Below are positions 2,222 through 45,723 of a stretch of DNA of 64,000 nucleotides, one piece after another. Every line of letters starts with the position of its first letter. The stretch's first letter is position 1. Below the pieces are notes generated by a model that saw nothing but the letters and a program-made list of their open reading frames with translations, was not told the DNA's origin and did no database searches. This DNA comes from Escherichia virus TH06: the sequence record MT446386.1; one strand, 5' to 3'. The translations under genes were made by a program, and so were the position numbers.

Positions 2222-3026
2222 GCTCCCTGAAGTTGCTCTAGTGGATGCTGACGTTCTTCGATATGAAGTGGGTGCTCTTACTCAGGAGCATCCTTTTCTT
2301 GACACAGGACGTGTTCCAGTTGATTACAATTTCATGATTGAACGACTTCAGTACAAGATTGATACGATCATATCTCGCTCAGGTTGCAGTAAGGTTGTAT
2401 TCTACTTCAGCGAAGGTGGTAACTTCCGTTTCGATGTTGCTAAGCAACAAGACTACAAGGCAAACAGACCTCCCGGAGAAAGACCTTTTCATTGGCAAAA
2501 CGTTGGTGATTACATTAAAGCCAAGTACGAATACATTGAGGTCTTTGGGAGAGAAGCTGATGATGCACTAGCTGAAAGGCAACGTAGGGATAAGAATACT
2601 ATCATCTGTACCAGAGACAAGGATTTGTTGATAACTCCCGGATGGCATTATCGCTGGGCTTGTGGAGAAAGGCAGAAAGAAGTCCCTCCTCACTATGTAT
2701 CTGATTTAGTCTCATGGCAAAACTTCTTCTATCAAATGTTGATTGGAGACGGTACGGATAATATTTCCGGATGTGGGGAACGTGAAGAAGTCATGTGGGG
2801 TGGTAAGCTTCAGCTTCGACGTCAAGGAGTAGGGAAGAAGGCAGCAGCTAAATTACTAGCTGGTGTTACAGATAAGTGGACCATGTATCATATAGTACGA
2901 ATGGAATATTATAAGAAGTTCGATACTGAAGATGAAGAGAAGATGCTTGAGAATGCGCGGCTGCTCTTTGTTGGTCAGACTCCTGAAGACCTGTTCGACT
3001 GGACATGGTTAGATAAATCTTGGTAA
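2199..3026 (+). CDS. 5'-3' exonuclease / flap endonuclease (FEN family)
   Basis: Motifs LVDADVLRY, GREADDALA, ICTRDKDLL, IGDGTDNISGCG and GKKAAAKLL (H3TH-like); start uncertain among TTG 2184, ATG 2199, ATG 2208. Confidence 0.6.
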   Translation: MIFMEEVKLPEVALVDADVLRYEVGALTQEHPFLDTGRVPVDYNFMIERLQYKIDTIISRSGCSKVVFYFSEGGNFRFDVAKQQDYKANRPPGERPFHWQNVGDYIKAKYEYIEVFGREADDALAERQRRDKNTIICTRDKDLLITPGWHYRWACGERQKEVPPHYVSDLVSWQNFFYQMLIGDGTDNISGCGEREEVMWGGKLQLRRQGVGKKAAAKLLAGVTDKWTMYHIVRMEYYKKFDTEDEEKMLENARLLFVGQTPEDLFDWTWLDKSW

Positions 3027-3039
3027 TAAGGATATTATA

Positions 3040-3219
3040 ATGGGTAAATTTGATTATCGTTCATATGATGAAAACTACTCCAACCGTGAATCTCGTAAAG
3101 ACCAAAAGATTAAACATCAACTGTTTGATCAGAGAACTGGTCGTATTCCTCGTGAGGGTAAGGTGAGCCATCGTGTAAACAAACGAGTTTGGGAAGAAGC
3201 TGATTATGGCGAAGTCTGA
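3040..3219 (+). CDS. hypothetical small protein (59 aa)
   Basis: ATG preceded by AAGGA; below the track length cutoff; overlaps the next gene start. Confidence 0.3.
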   Translation: MGKFDYRSYDENYSNRESRKDQKIKHQLFDQRTGRIPREGKVSHRVNKRVWEEADYGEV

Positions 3220-3607
3220 GAAGACTCGCTGTAGTGGAATGTGGACTGAAGCTCGTTACAACTCTTTCATCAAGTCAGGGATTCGTTCTCTGACTAGAAA
3301 GTGGAAGCCCATGTTCGATGCACTAGCAGACGCCAAGACAGAGCAGAAGATTAATCCAAAGACAGGTAGACTGGCAATGCACTTTAAGTGTGCCATGTGT
3401 GGTTCTGACCACCCTGTAAAGGATATGGCTATTGACCACATAGAACCTATAGTTCCTCTTGACCACGAAGCAACTTGGGATGAGATCATCTCTCGTGCTC
3501 TGTGTGAGAAAGAAGGTTTTCAGGTTCTGTGTAAAGACCCTTGTCATAAGATTAAAACAAAAGAAGAGAATGATGCAAGAAAACAATTCAAAAAAGGAAA
3601 TGAGTGA
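3206..3607 (+). CDS. HNH endonuclease
   Basis: Cys pairs and DHIEP ... CHKIK HNH-type motif. Confidence 0.55.
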   Translation: MAKSEKTRCSGMWTEARYNSFIKSGIRSLTRKWKPMFDALADAKTEQKINPKTGRLAMHFKCAMCGSDHPVKDMAIDHIEPIVPLDHEATWDEIISRALCEKEGFQVLCKDPCHKIKTKEENDARKQFKKGNE

Positions 3608-3827
3608 TGATCAAAAATCTACGCAACAAGTGCTTCGCTTTCGCTATCGCAATTGGAGAGGCGAGGTTTCTGACCGGTCCGTTATTCCACTCCGAACCTC
3701 CGTTGCTAGCTCCCGTTTTCATAACGGTGGCAAACCTTGTTGGATTATGACAGCAATAGATGTAGAGAAAGATGAGATTCGAGAATTCAAACTCTCTGAC
3801 ATTATTCAGTATTATGATTTAATCTAG
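3600..3827 (+). CDS. hypothetical protein (75 aa)
   Basis: In-frame ATG with RBS AAGGAA inside track ORF 3459..3827; overlaps HNH stop. Confidence 0.4.
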   Translation: MSDDQKSTQQVLRFRYRNWRGEVSDRSVIPLRTSVASSRFHNGGKPCWIMTAIDVEKDEIREFKLSDIIQYYDLI

Positions 3828-12397: not shown

Positions 12398-13180
12398 TTA
12401 CTTTACACCAATGCTAGCCAGACGTCTGAGCACTGCTTGTGTTTGTGGACTGTACTGAGAACCTGCTGCATGTGGTGCACTTGCCCTCTGAACTGTTTGA
12501 GAAGTGGGAGGTTTACCAGCAAGCATAGCAGCTACCCCTAATACTGCATTACCAAAGTTCTGTTGAGGTTTCTGATTTTCGCCTTCCTGCACTTCATCAG
12601 AGTAAAACTCTACTGGATTTCCACCTAAAGCACCTGTCTTAGAAGCAGCAATCTCTGCCTGAGTTGGAGCTTGTGCGGCCTTCTCTCTATCTAACAAGTC
12701 AGGACTAAACTGATTGACTGGTTGAACAGCTTGCAAAGCTCCAACAGGGTTAGCAATCTGAGAAGCTGCATCACCATAGAAAGGAAGAAAGTGTTTGTTG
12801 TTCATTGAGTCAAGGGCTTGAGGTGTAAATCCCTTTTTACCAGCGAACATTTGCTTAGCACCACCGATACCTTCTGAGTAACCAACCATTGCTTTCTTAA
12901 CATCACCATTAAAAGCCTTTAAGTTATCTCTAATATAACGAGCACCCATATCAATATTCTTTGCTGGGTCAAGTCTGTCTTCTAGTTTGTAACCGTAATC
13001 TTTAGCCAACCCTTTACTAATCTGCATTAAACCTACAGGACCAGTTCCAGAAGCCACTGTAGGACGACCACTAGACTCTCTTTGGATTACAGCATGAATC
13101 AAAGCAGCAGGAATCCCATACTTCTTTGAAGCCTGTTGAACCATTGGGTCTAGTTCTTCAATACCCATTCTAATTGACAT
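12398..13180 (-). CDS. SLT-domain lytic transglycosylase (virion-associated)
   Basis: VIQRESSGRPT and GLMQISKGLAKDYGY motifs typical of soluble lytic transglycosylases. Confidence 0.6.
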   Translation of the reverse strand: MSIRMGIEELDPMVQQASKKYGIPAALIHAVIQRESSGRPTVASGTGPVGLMQISKGLAKDYGYKLEDRLDPAKNIDMGARYIRDNLKAFNGDVKKAMVGYSEGIGGAKQMFAGKKGFTPQALDSMNNKHFLPFYGDAASQIANPVGALQAVQPVNQFSPDLLDREKAAQAPTQAEIAASKTGALGGNPVEFYSDEVQEGENQKPQQNFGNAVLGVAAMLAGKPPTSQTVQRASAPHAAGSQYSPQTQAVLRRLASIGVK

Positions 13181-19080: not shown

Positions 19081-19572
19081 TTAATATTTACCTTCGGTGT
19101 AAAGATTAGCTTCTGCAACTCTTCTATTATGAAGACCCTGACTTCTCTGCTTCTCTCCCTTGACCGTTATTTTATCCCAACGAAGAAATTCGGAATAAAC
19201 ATCCCCCTTAACATCTCCATTGATTACTTTCCTTAACTTAGATGTGCTCAAAGCACCACTGCCAACGTTGAAGTTGAAAGAAGTGAGTGCATCAAACTCA
19301 TGAACTAGTAAAGGAACCTTTATGTTCTTCTGAGTAGCACGAACAGAGTCTTGTGTGTCTCTATCTAGCAGAGCTAGACAATCCTCTATAGAATACGTTA
19401 ATCCTTGTCTAACCGGATAACCATTCATATCGCGCGTAGCCCCTACACATATAGTCCAGATACCTGCGGAATCTTTATAAGCCTTGGTTCTCATACCCTC
19501 ATGCTTCATGATGAATTCCATTCCAGCTGGGCTTAAGTTTAGTTGTACAGGTGGCAATGCGGCGTTATCCAT
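19081..19572 (-). CDS. GH24 (T4-type) lysozyme / endolysin
   Basis: N-terminal EFIMKHEGMRTKAYKDSAGIWTICVGAT matches the T4 lysozyme family catalytic region. Confidence 0.65.
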   Translation of the reverse strand: MDNAALPPVQLNLSPAGMEFIMKHEGMRTKAYKDSAGIWTICVGATRDMNGYPVRQGLTYSIEDCLALLDRDTQDSVRATQKNIKVPLLVHEFDALTSFNFNVGSGALSTSKLRKVINGDVKGDVYSEFLRWDKITVKGEKQRSQGLHNRRVAEANLYTEGKY

Positions 19573-19601: not shown

Positions 19602-19820
19602 TTAAGGTAGTATCTTTCTCAGAGCGTTAGATTCAGCATCAGGACAAATAACAACTAGATTATTTTGAATGGTTCGCTGCTTACATTGAGAACTAAGTTT
19701 CTCTACTGGAGCAGGTGCTGTAACTAATGGATGAACTGCGCTTACAGGGATTGCAGTAGATACCACGACTCCTGCACCTAAACAAACTAAACCATATACA
19801 GCTTGTTTCATCATTTTCAT
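19602..19820 (-). CDS. small membrane/secreted protein next to lysozyme (possible lysis protein)
   Basis: N-terminal hydrophobic segment AVYGLVCLGAGVVVSTAIPVSA; lies immediately upstream of the lysozyme. Confidence 0.3.
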   Translation of the reverse strand: MKMMKQAVYGLVCLGAGVVVSTAIPVSAVHPLVTAPAPVEKLSSQCKQRTIQNNLVVICPDAESNALRKILP

Positions 19821-37609: not shown

Positions 37610-37685
37610 GGTTACTATTTCTGCTTTATTGTGCCGTGGTCATGCCTATGGTCATAATTTATCTGATACTTTAAAACCTTCCTAT

Positions 37686-37709
37686 AAGCCTCGCTATGAG
37701 GCTTTTTTC
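37686..37709 (+). terminator. intrinsic terminator
   Basis: AAGCCTC-GCTAT-GAGGCTT followed by TTTTTT. Confidence 0.65.
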
Positions 37710-37913
37710 ATTTCTAGGGTGATTGTATGGCTTACTCCCTTTTAGCTCGCTACAGTGCGTTTCAGGCCGCTTATTATTGCTTTACAAGCCGTTTTCTATG
37801 ATGTATCACGCGCCCCCGCTCTTTTACCTCCTGATTTCTTCCGGTGTCCTACCGACAATAAAATAAATTCCTTTATAAAACAGTGAGATGAAAAATAATT
37901 TGAAAAAAGGGTA

Positions 37914-37941
37914 TTGACATGATTTTCCTTTATAGTAATAT
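37914..37941 (+). promoter_or_regulatory. sigma70-type promoter with A-tract UP-like element
   Basis: AAAAAAGGGTA TTGACA, 16 nt spacer, TAATAT; spacer resembles that of the 35659 promoter. Confidence 0.5.
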
Positions 37942-38070
37942 GAATCCCGTAGTAAGCAGTAAGTAACAACAAGTAGTAAAAACTCCTCGATAGGTGATTA
38001 GCATCACGGTAAAAGGCTTCAACGGGGAGCGGTAGGAATACCGACAGTAAGACGCACAATGAAGGTGCTA

Positions 38071-38084
38071 CGCTCTTTAAAAAT
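38071..38084 (+). repeat. copy 1 of CGCTCTTTAAAAAT motif
   Basis: Exact 14-mer. Confidence 0.6.
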
Positions 38085-38119
38085 CAGGCTAGAAAGTGAA
38101 AATATTCTTAAAAAGAGTA

Positions 38120-38148
38120 TTGACACCAGAAAAAGCCTGATACATAAT
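38120..38148 (+). promoter_or_regulatory. sigma70-type promoter
   Basis: AAAAAGAGTA TTGACA, 17 nt spacer, CATAAT; downstream GAGCACTCA nearly identical to the 38608 promoter. Confidence 0.55.
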
Positions 38149-38179
38149 GAGCACTCATTCAGCGATGAATCAAAACATC

Positions 38180-38194
38180 CCGCTCTTTAAAAAT
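38180..38194 (+). repeat. copy 2 of CCGCTCTTTAAAAAT motif
   Basis: Exact 15-mer followed by ATGA. Confidence 0.6.
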
Positions 38195-38449
38195 ATGATT
38201 TGTCTTACAGGTGGCGGTAACGTCATTACTATAAGGCGCTTAGTTGATCGCTAGAATTGATTCCTGATTCATACGTGAATAGGCGGACGAAGAGCAACAA
38301 AATAAGCCTCATTTGTTCGATACTTTCAAATGGTCGATGCTTGAAAGCGCACTAGATTCCTAAAAGACAAATCAGACTTATCATCTTGCCCTTTCGCAAA
38401 GATTCAAGCGAGATAAGGGAACGGAATAAAAGAAGATGATAAAAAGAGT

Positions 38450-38477
38450 TTGACAAGCTAACACGATGTGTTAAGCT
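38450..38477 (+). promoter_or_regulatory. sigma70-type promoter (weaker -10)
   Basis: AAAAAGAGT TTGACA, 16 nt spacer, TGnTAAGCT extended -10. Confidence 0.4.
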
Positions 38478-38489
38478 GTAAATGCTCCA

Positions 38490-38504
38490 CCGCTCTTTAA
38501 AAAT
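38490..38504 (+). repeat. copy 3 of CCGCTCTTTAAAAAT motif
   Basis: Exact 15-mer followed by ATGA. Confidence 0.6.
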
Positions 38505-38607
38505 ATGAATCATAAGTTTAAGCCTCACCGCTTAATCCTCAATCAAATAAAGCTGATTGATATATCCTCCCAATAGCGGGAACGACGAAAAAAGATTAAA
38601 AAAGTGG

Positions 38608-38636
38608 TTGACAGCGAAAACAACATGATTCATAAT
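38608..38636 (+). promoter_or_regulatory. sigma70-type promoter
   Basis: AAAAAAGTGG TTGACA, 17 nt spacer, CATAAT. Confidence 0.55.
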
Positions 38637-38725
38637 GAGCACTCACTAAGCAAATCACCGCTTCAGTGAAAAGCGCAACAACGGCTAACAGTTGCATAGC
38701 GTGAGAAAGCACGCTGATAGGTTTA

Positions 38726-38740
38726 CCGCTCTTTAATAAT
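38726..38740 (+). repeat. copy 4 (variant) CCGCTCTTTAATAAT
   Basis: One mismatch relative to the other copies. Confidence 0.5.
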
Positions 38741-39557
38741 TTAAACATTCTCCTATATCGGTTGAATATGCTTGATGATAATAACCATCGGAAAGCATAC
38801 CAGATAAAACGGTGTAAGATTCTCTAAACTATCAGAGAAAACAATCTTACAATCCCTTGCTGGAAACGTCACCACTGATAAACGGATTCATTGAGTGTAC
38901 GCAAAGACTTAAGCTAATCGCCCACGGTTAAGGGTAGCGGCGGTCATCGCTAACAAGGCGCTACAGTGAAAGAAGTTAATCAGGGTAGGCAAGCCCGAAG
39001 AATTAACGCTCAATTGAGAGCGGCGGGGAGTGGTTAAAAAGTGGCAAATTGCTATTTAACAATAAGGTTTAGTGTGAACGTTTACGATGTGAATGATTTG
39101 AGGCCACTATCGATGGCGTACATAGTCAGTTTATGTAGTAAACTTGCCGAAAGATATAAAACGTCAGAACATTAGACGGTCAATGACTCTTTCACAATAG
39201 CATCCCGTTGTGGGCGATGGCTAGTGATTGAGAGTTGATACAAAAGGATAGGCGAGAGCGAAAGCAAAGTAGACGATATTGCCGACGGTTACAATAAACG
39301 TAACTAATTAGAGTCGGACGCACTGCCTTATTGTGATGATTGATCATCGCTATCAGGTCGGCTTCGTTTATAGCGACTAATTAAAGATACCAGATGAAAC
39401 ATCACGGATAAGGGGGCGGCAAGGTTAACTCCTGATAAGACCGCCCCGCTTATCAATAATTACTTAACAATGAGTGGTTATTGATAAGTTAATAGTGACT
39501 TAAACAAGCTCATAGAGAGCGGGGCAATAGCGCCCTTACAATTGAAAGGTGAATATC

Positions 39558-41283: not shown

Positions 41284-41727
41284 GTGGCTAAATCAAAAAT
41301 CAGCATGAAGGGCGGGCGTTGTTTTGCTATCTCTGAACTGGAGAAAGAGAAGCCAAAGGCAACCAATCACGTCAGCAAGCGTAGTTTAAAACGTCGTGCT
41401 GCAAAGGCTGAGGCTGAATCTCATGTTCCTTCTAGTATACCTAAGCGCGTAGGCCATCGCGTTCATCGTGCTGATGCGTTATTGTTAGCTGATCATAAAC
41501 GATCTTTGTTACAGAGCGGGGGCGCTAAAACAGAAGAAGAGAAGAAGTTAGAAATCTTCTGTAATGGTCGCACCCGTGGTAAACAGAAGTTTAAGGGTAG
41601 CACGAAAGACCCGCAGGCTTTCCCTAAGACAAGCCAATGCGCACCTGATGTTTTCTACGCAGACAGTAAACATAAATGGGGCGTTGAGAAATACATTGAC
41701 CCCATCAAAGAGGCAAGGGTTAAGTAG
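41284..41727 (+). CDS. basic hypothetical protein
   Basis: GTG start 8 nt after AAGGA; Lys/Arg-rich. Confidence 0.4.
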   Translation: MAKSKISMKGGRCFAISELEKEKPKATNHVSKRSLKRRAAKAEAESHVPSSIPKRVGHRVHRADALLLADHKRSLLQSGGAKTEEEKKLEIFCNGRTRGKQKFKGSTKDPQAFPKTSQCAPDVFYADSKHKWGVEKYIDPIKEARVK

Positions 41728-41806
41728 TAGGAATATAGCCCCTCTTTTAGTACTATGACGCTCTTTCTGTAGCGTCGTGCCCTCTCCCCATTTGAAGATT
41801 CCGCAT

Positions 41807-41829
41807 AGCCGCCTTTGAGCGGCTTTTTG
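41807..41829 (+). terminator. intrinsic terminator
   Basis: AGCCGC-CTTTGA-GCGGCT then TTTTT. Confidence 0.65.
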
Positions 41830-41891
41830 CGTTGCTGTAAGTGCATTTGCGAGTGTATTTATAGCAACGGTCATGTGTTGCTTTCAGGTTT

Positions 41892-41918
41892 GCCCCGGCT
41901 ACGGCTGGGGCTTTTTTA
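41892..41918 (+). terminator. intrinsic terminator
   Basis: GCCCCGGC-TACG-GCTGGGGC then TTTTTT. Confidence 0.6.
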
Positions 41919-41966
41919 TGCCCGTAAAACAGGAGGTATCAAGTTCTGATAACAACGGCCCAGCTA

Positions 41967-42356
41967 ATGTTGACATTGACTATTTATTATGAGGCAGGGA
42001 ATCAGCCAACCGCATGTAAGGCTTTAGTTGCGGATACCGTAATAAATAGAATGGCACAACGAAAACTGACCGCTGAACAGGTGATAAGACAAAAGAACCA
42101 GTTTGAGTGGATTCCGGTACTATTAAAACAGGAGAAACCTTATAAACGTTATGTAAAGCTGATTCGTGATAAAAATCCGATGACTAAGCAAGCCATTGGA
42201 GAAAGCGAGCGGCTAGCTAAACGTGCCCTTAAGAAGAATTATGTTCCGCTTTATAGTGGGACTTACTTTCAGAGTAAGAGCGAAGGGGTGCCAAAATGGT
42301 ATGCCAATCCTATGTATTGTGGTGATTTAGTGTTCGATAATAGCTCTAGGGAATAA
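41967..42356 (+). CDS. SleB/CwlJ-like cell-wall hydrolase domain protein
   Basis: IYYEAGNQ...ALVADTVINR and NQF motifs match the Hydrolase_2 pattern Y.EA...VA..V.NR ... QFS. Confidence 0.45.
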   Translation: MLTLTIYYEAGNQPTACKALVADTVINRMAQRKLTAEQVIRQKNQFEWIPVLLKQEKPYKRYVKLIRDKNPMTKQAIGESERLAKRALKKNYVPLYSGTYFQSKSEGVPKWYANPMYCGDLVFDNSSRE

Positions 42357-42555
42357 TCTCTAGTGCCAGATTTAACAAACTAAATTCCTTTATAAACCAA
42401 CCACTTAGTAAATTTATTGAAAAAGATGGTAGTATTCTGGGACTATGGGTAATGCTCTGTATATAGACCCTTTGAAAATTTCTTAGAAAATAAGTTTACT
42501 AAATATAACTTACTTAAATAATATTACTTTTAATCTCTGATAAAGGGTAAATAAT

Positions 42556-42852
42556 ATGACTTTAGAGGTATATAAATTCCTTTTTGTAAGCTGTTTAACT
42601 ATCAGCGTTATAGGGTTTATTGTTCTCAGAAACAAAGCAGCAAGCTGGGAGAGAATGTATAAATCTCTAGTCCGAGTGGATGAGATGTATAATGAGAAAG
42701 TTAAAGTAACACTTAATGATCTTATTATGCAAGTTGAAGACAGAAATAAGCGTCTTCAGAACCTCAACCATGAAGTATTACGACTTGCTCGTGCTAATGA
42801 AGACTTGCGAGTAGCTATTGCTAAGCAGCAGGAGATTAACAGTGAAAGTTAA
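42556..42852 (+). CDS. membrane-anchored coiled-coil protein
   Basis: N-terminal TM helix followed by a heptad-rich segment. Confidence 0.4.
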   Translation: MTLEVYKFLFVSCLTISVIGFIVLRNKAASWERMYKSLVRVDEMYNEKVKVTLNDLIMQVEDRNKRLQNLNHEVLRLARANEDLRVAIAKQQEINSES

Positions 42853-43078
42853 TATTAAATCTGATCGTACAATGCTTCGATTAAATAACATGAAGCCGGG
42901 GGTTCTGTTTGAGCGTAAAGAATCCCTTTACATCAGAACCGACACATTGTACGCAGACAATTATGTCAACTGTGTTGATGTGGTAACTGGAAAGCTCATG
43001 CCTTTTAAACGGGATGAAGTTTGCCAAGTACGCAGTGATCTCCATATAACCAACATAGAGGCTAAAGATGAAGATTAA
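42842..43078 (+). CDS. small paralog-family protein (array 1, member 1)
   Basis: GTG start after AGGAG; motif KPGVLF; family resemblance to the following genes. Confidence 0.4.
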   Translation: MKVNIKSDRTMLRLNNMKPGVLFERKESLYIRTDTLYADNYVNCVDVVTGKLMPFKRDEVCQVRSDLHITNIEAKDED

Positions 43079-43325
43079 TCTTGAAGTAAATGAACCGTCT
43101 TTGTGTGTTGGTGATCTCAAACTTGGGGATGTATTCCAAATCAGGGAAACACGAGCAGATTTCTACATGGTTGTTCAGCTATTTACCTCACAGATTGAAG
43201 AGACCAAGCCTTCTGATGGGGGTTGTGTCGTCCTTAGTCTGACAAATAAGCAAGTCCTTAAACTTAGCTCGAAAAGCAAGGTTGTTCTTCTTCATGATGT
43301 TGTTATTACTAACAAGGGCAAGTAG
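43068..43325 (+). CDS. small paralog-family protein (array 1, member 2)
   Basis: MKINLEV ... LGDVFQI ... FYMVV. Confidence 0.45.
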   Translation: MKINLEVNEPSLCVGDLKLGDVFQIRETRADFYMVVQLFTSQIEETKPSDGGCVVLSLTNKQVLKLSSKSKVVLLHDVVITNKGK

Positions 43326-43544
43326 ATGGAAATTAAAGTAGTTGATTATCCTAAATATGCAAATGCAGAAGATGTTAAAGGTGGTGATGTTTTCTCTTAC
43401 GACAGACGTTTCTGGCTGATGTTAGAAGATAAAACTCCCGATGGTTTATGTAAGGCCGCCAATCTGAACAGCGGTTCTGTTGAAGTCTTCGGTCTATCAA
43501 CCACTGTTATGCCACGCCCTGATCTGTGTTTATCCCAAAAGTAA
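43326..43544 (+). CDS. small paralog-family protein (array 1, member 3)
   Basis: MEIKVVD ... GGDVFSY ... FWLML. Confidence 0.45.
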   Translation: MEIKVVDYPKYANAEDVKGGDVFSYDRRFWLMLEDKTPDGLCKAANLNSGSVEVFGLSTTVMPRPDLCLSQK

Positions 43545-45207: not shown

Positions 45208-45283
45208 GCGCTCTTAGCTCAATGGATAGAGCAGTAGCCTTCTAAGCTATTGGTTACAGGTTCGAGTCCTGTAGGGCGCACCA
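45208..45283 (+). tRNA. tRNA-Arg (anticodon TCT)
   Basis: Hand-folded cloverleaf: acceptor GCGCTCT/AGGGCGC with one G-U, D-arm GCTC/GAGC, anticodon stem GTAGC/GCTAT, loop CTTCTAA, T-arm ACAGG-TTCGAGT-CCTGT, encoded CCA. Confidence 0.7.
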
Positions 45284-45423: not shown

Positions 45424-45723
45424 ATGAGTTGGGGTGGTGTAATATCCTTAATCTGTATCTTCCTTGTCTGTGTGGCCCTTACAGGCTGCGTACAGAGCCG
45501 CCCTGATGGGTGGTGTGCAGTAGCAGTGGATGGTATTTGTGTATCTCGCTGGCATTCAGGAAACAAGATTCCTAGTGGTGAGATTGATATGCGCTACAAC
45601 GGGGCAACCTGCTCTAATGCTAACCCTTCTATCAACGAAGAGAAGTCTACGCCAGACAATGTTGTGATCGATACAGCGTTGTGGTGTGGCGGTTCTGTAA
45701 CAACAACCGGTAAGGAGTGGTAA
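45424..45723 (+). CDS. lipoprotein (possible superinfection-exclusion protein)
   Basis: Signal peptide with lipobox ALTGC; Cys-rich mature part; early-region location. Confidence 0.45.
   Translation: MSWGGVISLICIFLVCVALTGCVQSRPDGWCAVAVDGICVSRWHSGNKIPSGEIDMRYNGATCSNANPSINEEKSTPDNVVIDTALWCGGSVTTTGKEW

Follow-up and report, generated by a model that had tools for sequence, protein, structure and literature searches.

Hydrolase_2 (Pfam PF07486), the domain of the Bacillus enzymes SleB and CwlJ, is among the dominant catalytic domains of the lysins of phages with Gram-negative hosts, and such lysins are highly positively charged (PMC8223927). The glutamate of SleB is essential (PMC12331253, PMC11148199), and a type VI secretion system (T6SS) effector with the SleB fold, T6EC3, is toxic in the periplasm of Escherichia coli only when that glutamate is present (PMC11148199). 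SleB-like proteins have been implicated in lysis in phages CR3 and CB7, and in Certrevirus a holin candidate overlaps the SleB-like gene (PMC7344957). Here we describe a gene of this kind in a stretch of 64,000 nucleotides (nt) from Escherichia virus TH06 (record MT446386.1), referred to below, at its full length, as the window. The gene, open reading frame (ORF) 1, lies in the early arm and is followed by ORF2, which encodes a small membrane protein. Judged by profile and predicted fold, ORF1 is a single-domain member of the SleB/CwlJ (Hydrolase_2) lytic-transglycosylase family without an export signal. The balance of probability lies modestly on the side of a putative cytoplasmic, holin-dependent auxiliary endolysin, probably an ancestral second one, that is expressed at a low level.

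A preliminary description of this DNA had placed a SleB/CwlJ-type hydrolase and a membrane-anchored coiled-coil protein one behind the other, and both ORFs are indeed present on the plus strand, at 41967..42356 (129 amino acids, aa) and 42556..42852 (98 aa). The locus comprises the following elements:

41807..41824, plus strand: first terminator-like hairpin, AGCCGCCTTTGAGCGGCT followed by a T-run, from a consensus scan
41892..41918, plus strand: second, stronger terminator-like hairpin, an 8-bp stem with 7 G-C pairs followed by TTTTTT
41931..41937, plus strand: Shine-Dalgarno sequence AGGAGGT, 9 nt before CTG 41946 and 30 nt before ATG 41967
41946..42356, plus strand: proposed full-length SleB/CwlJ-family gene (136 aa from a CTG start), which extends the phi32_117 orthologue by 7 residues at the N-terminus
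41967..42356, plus strand: ORF1 in its GenBank annotation, 129 aa from an ATG that has no Shine-Dalgarno sequence
41991..41993, plus strand: GAG codon of the putative catalytic glutamate in the motif IYYEAGNQ (E9 in the 129-aa form, E16 in the 136-aa form)
42357..42555, plus strand: spacer that separates ORF1 from ORF2; its length is about 200 nt in every relative
42556..42852, plus strand: ORF2, the phi32_116 orthologue, 98 aa, an N-terminal transmembrane (TM) helix and a long helix with coiled-coil character

A search for the Hydrolase_2 profile had been proposed as a check, and ORF1 passes it with 32.2 bits (E 1.7e-7; gathering cut-off 27 bits), residues 13-114 being aligned to profile positions 2-85 of 100. 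The protein also matches the 'endolysin' family phrog_938 weakly, and its own family, phrog_12974, is labelled 'unknown function'. An exhaustive HMMER search with a profile of close ORF1 relatives yields 75 representatives, most of them 130-145 aa long and with a single domain. In an alignment of 33 homologues reaching down to 24% identity, E9 and R28 do not vary at all and Q45 hardly does. The homologue profile matches the catalytic domains of SleB (4F55, E 8e-19; 4FET, E 4e-18). The family profile is required for this result; a single-sequence phmmer search of ORF1 against the PDB returns nothing meaningful. NCBIfam and PADLOC searches give no real match for either ORF1 or ORF2. The AlphaFold2 (AF2) model of ORF1, with a mean predicted local distance difference test (pLDDT) score of 92.5, has the fold of the SleB catalytic domain, and Foldseek assigns it to SleB only, with probability 1.00. 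The family is already tagged publicly: the PF07486 match is precomputed, and UniRef uses the name 'Cell wall hydrolase SleB domain-containing protein'.

The family motif Y-x-E-A aligns on the 'YGES' of SleB, and its glutamate falls on chain residue 120 of 4fet_B. This residue is presumably E151, provided that the 222-residue chain begins after residue 31 of a precursor that we take to be 253 aa long. E151 (B. anthracis numbering) is reportedly the catalytic residue of SleB, according to the work of Jing et al. in 2012. The whole SleB core of ORF1, the glutamate included, is conserved as in active enzymes, and ORF1 is apparently catalytically competent. The suggestion that this phage carries a third peptidoglycan-active domain of a different fold is therefore upheld as to the fold (SleB/CwlJ, Hydrolase_2), with the activity itself predicted. 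The option of a non-catalytic peptidoglycan-binding protein, also raised in the preliminary description, is disfavoured because the glutamate at the catalytic position is invariant in the 33 diverse homologues.

ORF1 is a basic protein (pI 9.7, net charge +10) and has neither a TM segment nor a signal peptide. Its maximum 19-residue Kyte-Doolittle value is 0.29 in the 129-aa form and 0.71 in the 136-aa form, compared with the TM threshold of 1.6 used here, and a basic n-region is absent. These are the properties of a soluble cytoplasmic enzyme without a signal peptide or signal-anchor-release (SAR) domain.

Compared with Bacillus SleB/CwlJ (PF07486; 4FET, 4F55), ORF1 shares the N-terminal helix with the catalytic glutamate (Y-x-E-[AS]), the NR motif, and the C-terminal beta-hairpin. 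It has no part besides the catalytic domain, as is also true of CwlJ, whereas SleB has a signal peptide and a PG_binding_1 N-terminal domain. Identity to SleB/CwlJ is 15-17%, ORF1 carries a helical insert at about residues 50-90, and it is the gene of a phage with a Gram-negative host, whose murein is without muramic-delta-lactam. A further group for comparison is formed by the Hydrolase_2 endolysins of Gram-negative-host phages (e.g. phrog_938, AEK82026 of phage 7-11, GAP52_091, CB7_83 and CR3_087 of Vequintavirinae/Certrevirus, and Phapecoctavirus), with which the putative endolysin of phiEcoM-GJ1, named in the GenBank note of AEK82026, is grouped. ORF1 resembles them in being single-domain, basic, and about 130-145 aa long, and it is 32-36% identical to the 7-11 and GAP52 proteins. 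A second muralytic enzyme accompanies Hydrolase_2 in Phapecoctavirus, which carries GH24 and Hydrolase_2 together, and in 7-11 (M15), as in Kuravirus. Unlike these endolysins, ORF1 belongs to its own PHROG (12974), has no adjacent holin or spanin, probably starts at CTG/TTG, and lies in an early arm; it also lacks the signal peptide that CB7_83 has. T6EC3 resembles ORF1 in its SleB-like catalytic domain and acts on Gram-negative murein through the equivalent glutamate, but it is delivered by a secretion system, has a periplasmic immunity partner, and is not a phage protein; the likeness considered here is one of fold (PMC11148199).

The true start of ORF1 is probably CTG 41946, 21 nt upstream of the annotated ATG, since several lines of comparison converge on it. 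Genomes whose upstream inserts are unrelated regain homology precisely at the Shine-Dalgarno sequence (41931..41937). Across Kuravirus and Suseptimavirus, the codons 41946-41966 (L-I-T-T-A-Q-L) vary at only four sites, each a third position at which the change is synonymous. Two relatives with 72% identity (L007 and L009) have TTG at the codon aligned to the CTG and no downstream ATG, and Suseptimavirus has CTT at the position of the Kuravirus ATG. Most family members carry about 8-10 residues ahead of the conserved helix, and in the AF2 model of the 136-aa form residues 4-17 make up helix 1 (pLDDT ~93). In-frame TAG/TAA stops lie 1-2 codons upstream of the CTG. Translation may instead begin at ATG 41967, where most other records place the start (129 aa). 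In the records of SU7, ECBP2, and KBNP1711, the gene is annotated as 101 aa from the internal Met29, by which the catalytic glutamate is lost. These calls are annotation artefacts, because the full frame is intact in those genomes; it is intact, N-terminus included, in every genome examined.

Low expression of ORF1 is suggested by the terminator-like hairpins upstream together with the weak start codon. The first hairpin (41807..41824) lies within a 240-nt non-coding stretch that follows a gene of 147 aa (41284..41727), and the second (41892..41918) ends about 13 nt before the Shine-Dalgarno sequence. L009 and phage 7-11 likewise have a hairpin and T-run ahead of the gene, and the 7-11 annotation calls it a terminator. 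RNA folding of the ORF1 leader (z -1.2) finds nothing beyond the terminator hairpin, and an Rfam scan gives only sub-threshold, terminator-driven matches. Within 41793..41919, a sub-threshold small RNA match is seen (MicX, 25.8 bits against a gathering score of 75). Matches of this kind there are most likely terminator-driven, and a short terminated transcript from a weak TTGCTG-N18-TATTTA promoter may exist in the same interval. The region between the 147-aa gene and the SleB-like gene (41728..41930) is an insertion hot spot in comparison with three related genomes (L002, L003, L004). Inserts there include phiEco32 gp119 ('tail protein') and gp118, one 125-aa ORF in ShigP1, and five genes in EcoN5; this phage and SU10 have no insert.

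Three consensus TTGACA promoters, at ~37.9-38.6 kb, lie about 3.3 kb before ORF1. These promoters (37914, 38120, and 38608) follow a terminator at 37686..37704 and match the early-promoter cluster of SU10 (SU10 Table S2). The surrounding interval 37610..39548 contains ~1.9 kb without an ORF of at least 90 aa, which is unusually long for non-coding phage DNA. The gp36 middle/late promoter consensus, TAATGTATA, has its sole nearby match (1 mismatch) inside ORF2 (42653), and the window-wide count of matches is that of chance. The gp36-consensus scan gives no evidence of a late promoter near ORF1 or ORF2.

ORF2 has the TM and coiled-coil character attributed to it in the preliminary description. 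A single hydrophobic segment spans residues 5-23 (nt 42568..42624; Kyte-Doolittle 2.15), the AF2 model is one continuous helix from residue 2 to 97 (pLDDT 93.5), and the ORF2 profile matches only coiled-coil proteins in the PDB (e.g. designed coiled coils, tetherin, tropomyosin). Charge bias suggests a cytoplasmic C-terminus; the same bias is noted for the i-spanin of the clade. In size and build (~100 aa, one N-terminal TM segment, a long helical or coiled-coil remainder), ORF2 resembles T7 gp17.5, the T4 RI antiholin, Rz, and FtsB/FtsL, but it has no detectable homology to these bitopic proteins and no adjoining lipoprotein partner.

Several identities can be rejected for ORF2. The Kuravirus i-spanin is a different gene: in phiEco32 the curated spanins map to 35.3-35.8 kb, a region outside this window, and the NJ01 spanin sequences match nothing in the window. 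The ORF that follows ORF2 (42842..43078) has no lipobox of the kind that an o-spanin partner would carry. The name 'DNA helicase', given to the orthologues in phiEco32, KBNP1711, ECBP2, and EC.W2-6, is spurious and propagated. It comes from phrog_12154 and offers no independent evidence, because ORF2 matches that 98-position profile end to end; a 98-aa protein that is a single helix and has no Pfam helicase domain is not a helicase. Nor does ORF2 show specific homology to E. coli FtsB (hhalign probability 0.16). For a holin the features are mixed: ORF2 has one TM segment and a charged helical tail, but it has no match among the holin families of PHROG or Pfam, its gene is part of the early arm, and a promoter-like spacer of 200 nt precedes it. 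The three small ORFs behind it (42842..43544; 78, 85, and 72 aa) cross-match PHROGs 6570 and 7832, which suggests distant tandem paralogues; BLASTP among the three gives no match.

ORF2 looks like a separate transcription unit with its own promoter, because the spacer before it is conserved and carries promoter-like hexamers and because ORF2 heads a run of overlapping small ORFs. The spacer measures 198-224 nt across all lineages and holds several near-invariant blocks (~42374-42408, 42448-42469, and 42517-42529), which persist even where ORF2 is only ~31% identical. It contains a promoter-like sigma70 hexamer pair, TTTACT-16-AATAAT, at 42495-42522, and a promoter is annotated at the equivalent position in the SU7 record. 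The conserved blocks probably mark a promoter or an operator, or several of these. RNA folding of 42357..42555 gives no significant signal (z +0.75), and the interval matches no Rfam family. ORF1 and ORF2 are adjacent in every Kuravirus-like genome examined, even those with the most divergent ORF2, but this is not specific evidence of a partnership because the whole early arm is syntenic in those relatives. The pairing of the two genes as one module, which had been proposed, is weakened by this ~200-nt promoter-like spacer, by the faster evolution of ORF2, and by its absence after the 7-11 and GAP52 homologues. We therefore regard ORF2 as an early membrane protein that probably has a promoter of its own, and not as an established partner of ORF1.

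ORF1 is a functional gene under purifying selection. A 3-kb query around ORF1/ORF2 matches 99 phage records at 80-99% identity, and the best matches and all records opened are Escherichia/Shigella phages of the Kuravirus group (Gordonclarkvirinae: EC.W2-6, SU10, phiEco32, and others). ORF1 is present at ≥80% identity in 98 of the 99, and its protein is 100% identical in 62, including phi32_117 of phiEco32 and gp116 of SU10; ORF2 is the orthologue of phi32_116 and SU10 gp115. Against phiEco32, ORF1 shows 0 non-synonymous changes at a pS of 0.09. Its dN/dS is 0.09-0.10 against Suseptimavirus and 0.18-0.22 against KBNP1711 and L009. ORF2 is also constrained (dN/dS 0.06-0.30), but it evolves ~8 times faster in the comparison with ECBP2 (dN 0.64 for ORF2, 0.076 for ORF1).

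The other wall-active genes of the window lie on the opposite strand:

12398..13180, minus strand: SLT-domain protein in the structural-gene module (E 1e-23)
19081..19572, minus strand: GH24 (Phage_lysozyme) endolysin in the late module (E 4e-32; PMC9965538, PMC4281155)
19602..19820, minus strand: PHROG 'holin' ORF (phrog_11161), 72 aa with one TM segment, immediately upstream of the GH24 gene

Domain matches thus agree with the GH24 lysozyme (19081..19572) and SLT protein (12398..13180) named in the preliminary description, and ORF1 does occupy an early-arm position in a phage that also carries both. SU10 ejection protein gp20 has transglycosylase activity (PMC9509320), and the SLT protein is taken as its putative counterpart. 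ORF1 does not belong to a lysis cassette, which would place it beside holin and spanin genes with late expression: it lies in the early arm, ~22 kb away from the holin and GH24 pair, and the spanins are elsewhere. Two further features of the window may be recorded here. Near the end of the late module, an HNH endonuclease ORF (3206..3607; phrog_3106, E 6e-40) overlaps a 122-aa ORF (3459..3827) and is possibly a mobile element. A tRNA-Arg(TCT) gene (45208..45283) is followed by a 99-aa ORF (45424..45723) with a lipoprotein signal (ALTGC), whose SU10 equivalent is annotated 'putative lipoprotein'.

SleB-like genes also occur where the Kuravirus lysis genes do not. According to the SU10 paper (PMC4281155), neither 7-11 nor GAP52 has the Kuravirus holin and lysozyme, and no GH24, holin, or SLT homologue is found in the first 50 kb of 7-11. 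Both phages carry SleB-like homologues of 141 aa with a Hydrolase_2 score of 61.7 bits. In 7-11, the SleB-like AEK82026 is accompanied by an M15 peptidase, AEK81965, which is annotated 'putative endolysin' and lies in the middle region (39019..39411 of L102). The Privateer paper names an 'endolysin endopeptidase' as the endolysin and identifies no holin (PMC7881722). This enzyme and the M15 peptidase of 7-11 rule out the SleB-like gene as the sole endolysin of the 7-11-like phages. Because 7-11 and GAP52 carry the SleB-like gene while the endolysin of 7-11 is M15 and not GH24, the SleB-like gene appears to be the wall enzyme common to the Kuravirus-like and 7-11-like phages, with unrelated named endolysins (GH24 versus M15). 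Apart from the SleB-like gene and one phi32_99 homologue, the 7-11 and GAP52 loci show no synteny with the window. In GAP52, TerD/TerZ-like genes lie upstream of the SleB-like gene, and a 182-aa lipoprotein (lipobox LLGC; 3621..4169 of L005) is encoded two genes after it. More distantly, at least 16 of 42 distinct IMG/VR loci have a conserved three-TM ORF of 106-114 aa 10 nt downstream of the ORF1 homologue (at ~2382..2702, in contigs among L023-L092). These neighbours have no PHROG match, so 'holin-like' describes their topology only.

On the favoured reading, transcripts of the early arm would reach ORF1 only by passing one or two hairpins that resemble intrinsic terminators, and its strong Shine-Dalgarno sequence would serve a weak start codon, CTG, so that little protein would be made. 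The basic 15-kDa product would remain in the cytoplasm, because it has no signal peptide or TM segment, and would be without substrate there. Late in infection, the 72-aa holin (19602..19820) would permeabilise the inner membrane, and the enzyme would reach the murein and, together with the GH24 endolysin, act there by cutting glycan strands. That ordinary peptidoglycan is a substrate is assumed here from other Gram-negative members of the family.

A number of points weigh against such an auxiliary endolysin. Bacillus SleB requires muramic-delta-lactam, which is absent from E. coli murein. Early sigma70 transcription is turned off by gp79, and ORF1 is distant from the holin and GH24 genes. We infer the CTG start by comparison of genomes. 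It is not obvious why an endolysin with a redundant function should stay 100% identical in 62 genomes, and this identity, despite the GH24 endolysin, hints at a non-redundant role. In phiEco32 macroarray work, the arm that contains ORF1 is classed as early, an arm-level description from which the temporal class of phi32_117 is taken (PMC8948821). The ORF1 product is absent from the early gene products listed as detected in SU10 proteomics (PMC4281155), which is consistent with low abundance, yet uninformative. The literature search found no experimental muralytic activity or lysis phenotype for phi32_117 or its orthologues, and no paper linking Kuravirus to SleB or 'cell wall hydrolase'.

Several of these points would suit an early, non-lytic job for ORF1, i.e. 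cytoplasmic moonlighting or regulation, limited wall remodelling, or superinfection exclusion after unrecognised export. The early-arm position and extreme conservation of ORF1 may be compatible with a distinct early role of this kind. T7 lysozyme, which regulates T7 RNA polymerase, offers a model for a cytoplasmic regulatory role. The complete protein identity among so many records that also have GH24, the retention of the gene in two phage families with exchanged canonical endolysins, and an apparently deliberately low expression all speak for such a job. It is nonetheless unlikely, if with some real weight, since the catalytic glutamate and the entire SleB core show the conservation of active enzymes, the protein has no additional domain or surface feature that would point to a binding partner, and the lack of an export signal leaves no route to the periplasm before the holin acts. 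To our knowledge, lytic transglycosylases have no cytoplasmic substrate. A broader proposal would make the SleB-like enzyme ancestral and clade-defining in the prolate-headed (C3) podophages (Gordonclarkvirinae and Grimontviridae), with the canonical endolysins (GH24 with holin versus M15 peptidase) swapped around a nearly unchanged enzyme that is itself throttled, by upstream terminators and a CUG/UUG start, for a task beyond that of a late endolysin (early or non-lysis, a regulation like that of T7 lysozyme, or one coupled to ORF2); in this full form it is rather improbable.

Coupling to ORF2 is the core of another explanation, in which the two ORFs form a dedicated alternative lysis module and ORF2 serves as a one-TM holin, a membrane anchor, or an RI-like regulator. 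The unbroken adjacency of the two genes, the holin-like size of ORF2 with its one TM segment and charged helical tail, the small multi-TM ORFs that often adjoin distant ORF1 family members, and the overlapping holin candidate of Certrevirus (PMC7344957) would fit. We nevertheless consider this module quite improbable: the ~200-nt spacer with its promoter-like blocks is unlike the tight coupling typical of lysis cassettes, adjacency is unspecific in an arm that is syntenic throughout, and ORF2 diverges much faster and has no counterpart behind the 7-11 and GAP52 homologues. In addition, a PHROG 'holin' ORF already stands beside GH24, ORF2 is not homologous to the Kuravirus i-spanin, and early expression of a holin would kill the host too soon. 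There is little to recommend self-export of ORF1 by a hydrophobic N-terminal helix acting as a SAR domain of the P1 Lyz and R21 type. In all homologues the first 15-20 residues are hydrophobic (e.g. MSFLVCWLALTLNIY in 7-11, Kyte-Doolittle 1.2), and the Privateer paper identifies no holin, but the 19-residue maxima of 0.3-1.2 stay under the TM threshold. The hydrophobic stretch is ~14 residues long, lacks a basic n-region, ends in the catalytic glutamate, and is the counterpart of helix 1 of SleB, which is buried; the model agrees with this at pLDDT >90. Very improbable, too, is a decaying relic or a non-catalytic peptidoglycan-binding protein. The Pfam score is just 5 bits over the cut-off and several genomes annotate only the 101-aa product without the glutamate; against this, those annotations are start-calling artefacts, dN/dS is 0-0.2, the full frame is intact throughout, and the glutamate is invariant. 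The auxiliary, holin-dependent endolysin remains the explanation that we favour.

Hydrolase_2 lysins are already a recognised class in phages with Gram-negative hosts, and databases already tag the family of ORF1, so the discovery value is modest; the finding is real but fairly ordinary and at the level of annotation. Its practical value lies in corrections. ORF1 is labelled 'hypothetical' in nearly all of ~100 Kuravirus-like genomes and is probably 7 codons short in most, the glutamate is lost in some, and ORF2 carries a false 'DNA helicase' label. If the conserved CUG start behind a strong Shine-Dalgarno sequence is true, it would be a rare documented case of near-cognate initiation that throttles a toxic product. 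Kuraviruses are under development for therapy against pathogenic E. coli, and the very basic 15-kDa, putatively muralytic ORF1 protein is a candidate enzybiotic. For the phages themselves, it is the SleB-like gene, and not the named endolysin, that appears to be common to two families, which raises the question of which enzyme was the original lysin.

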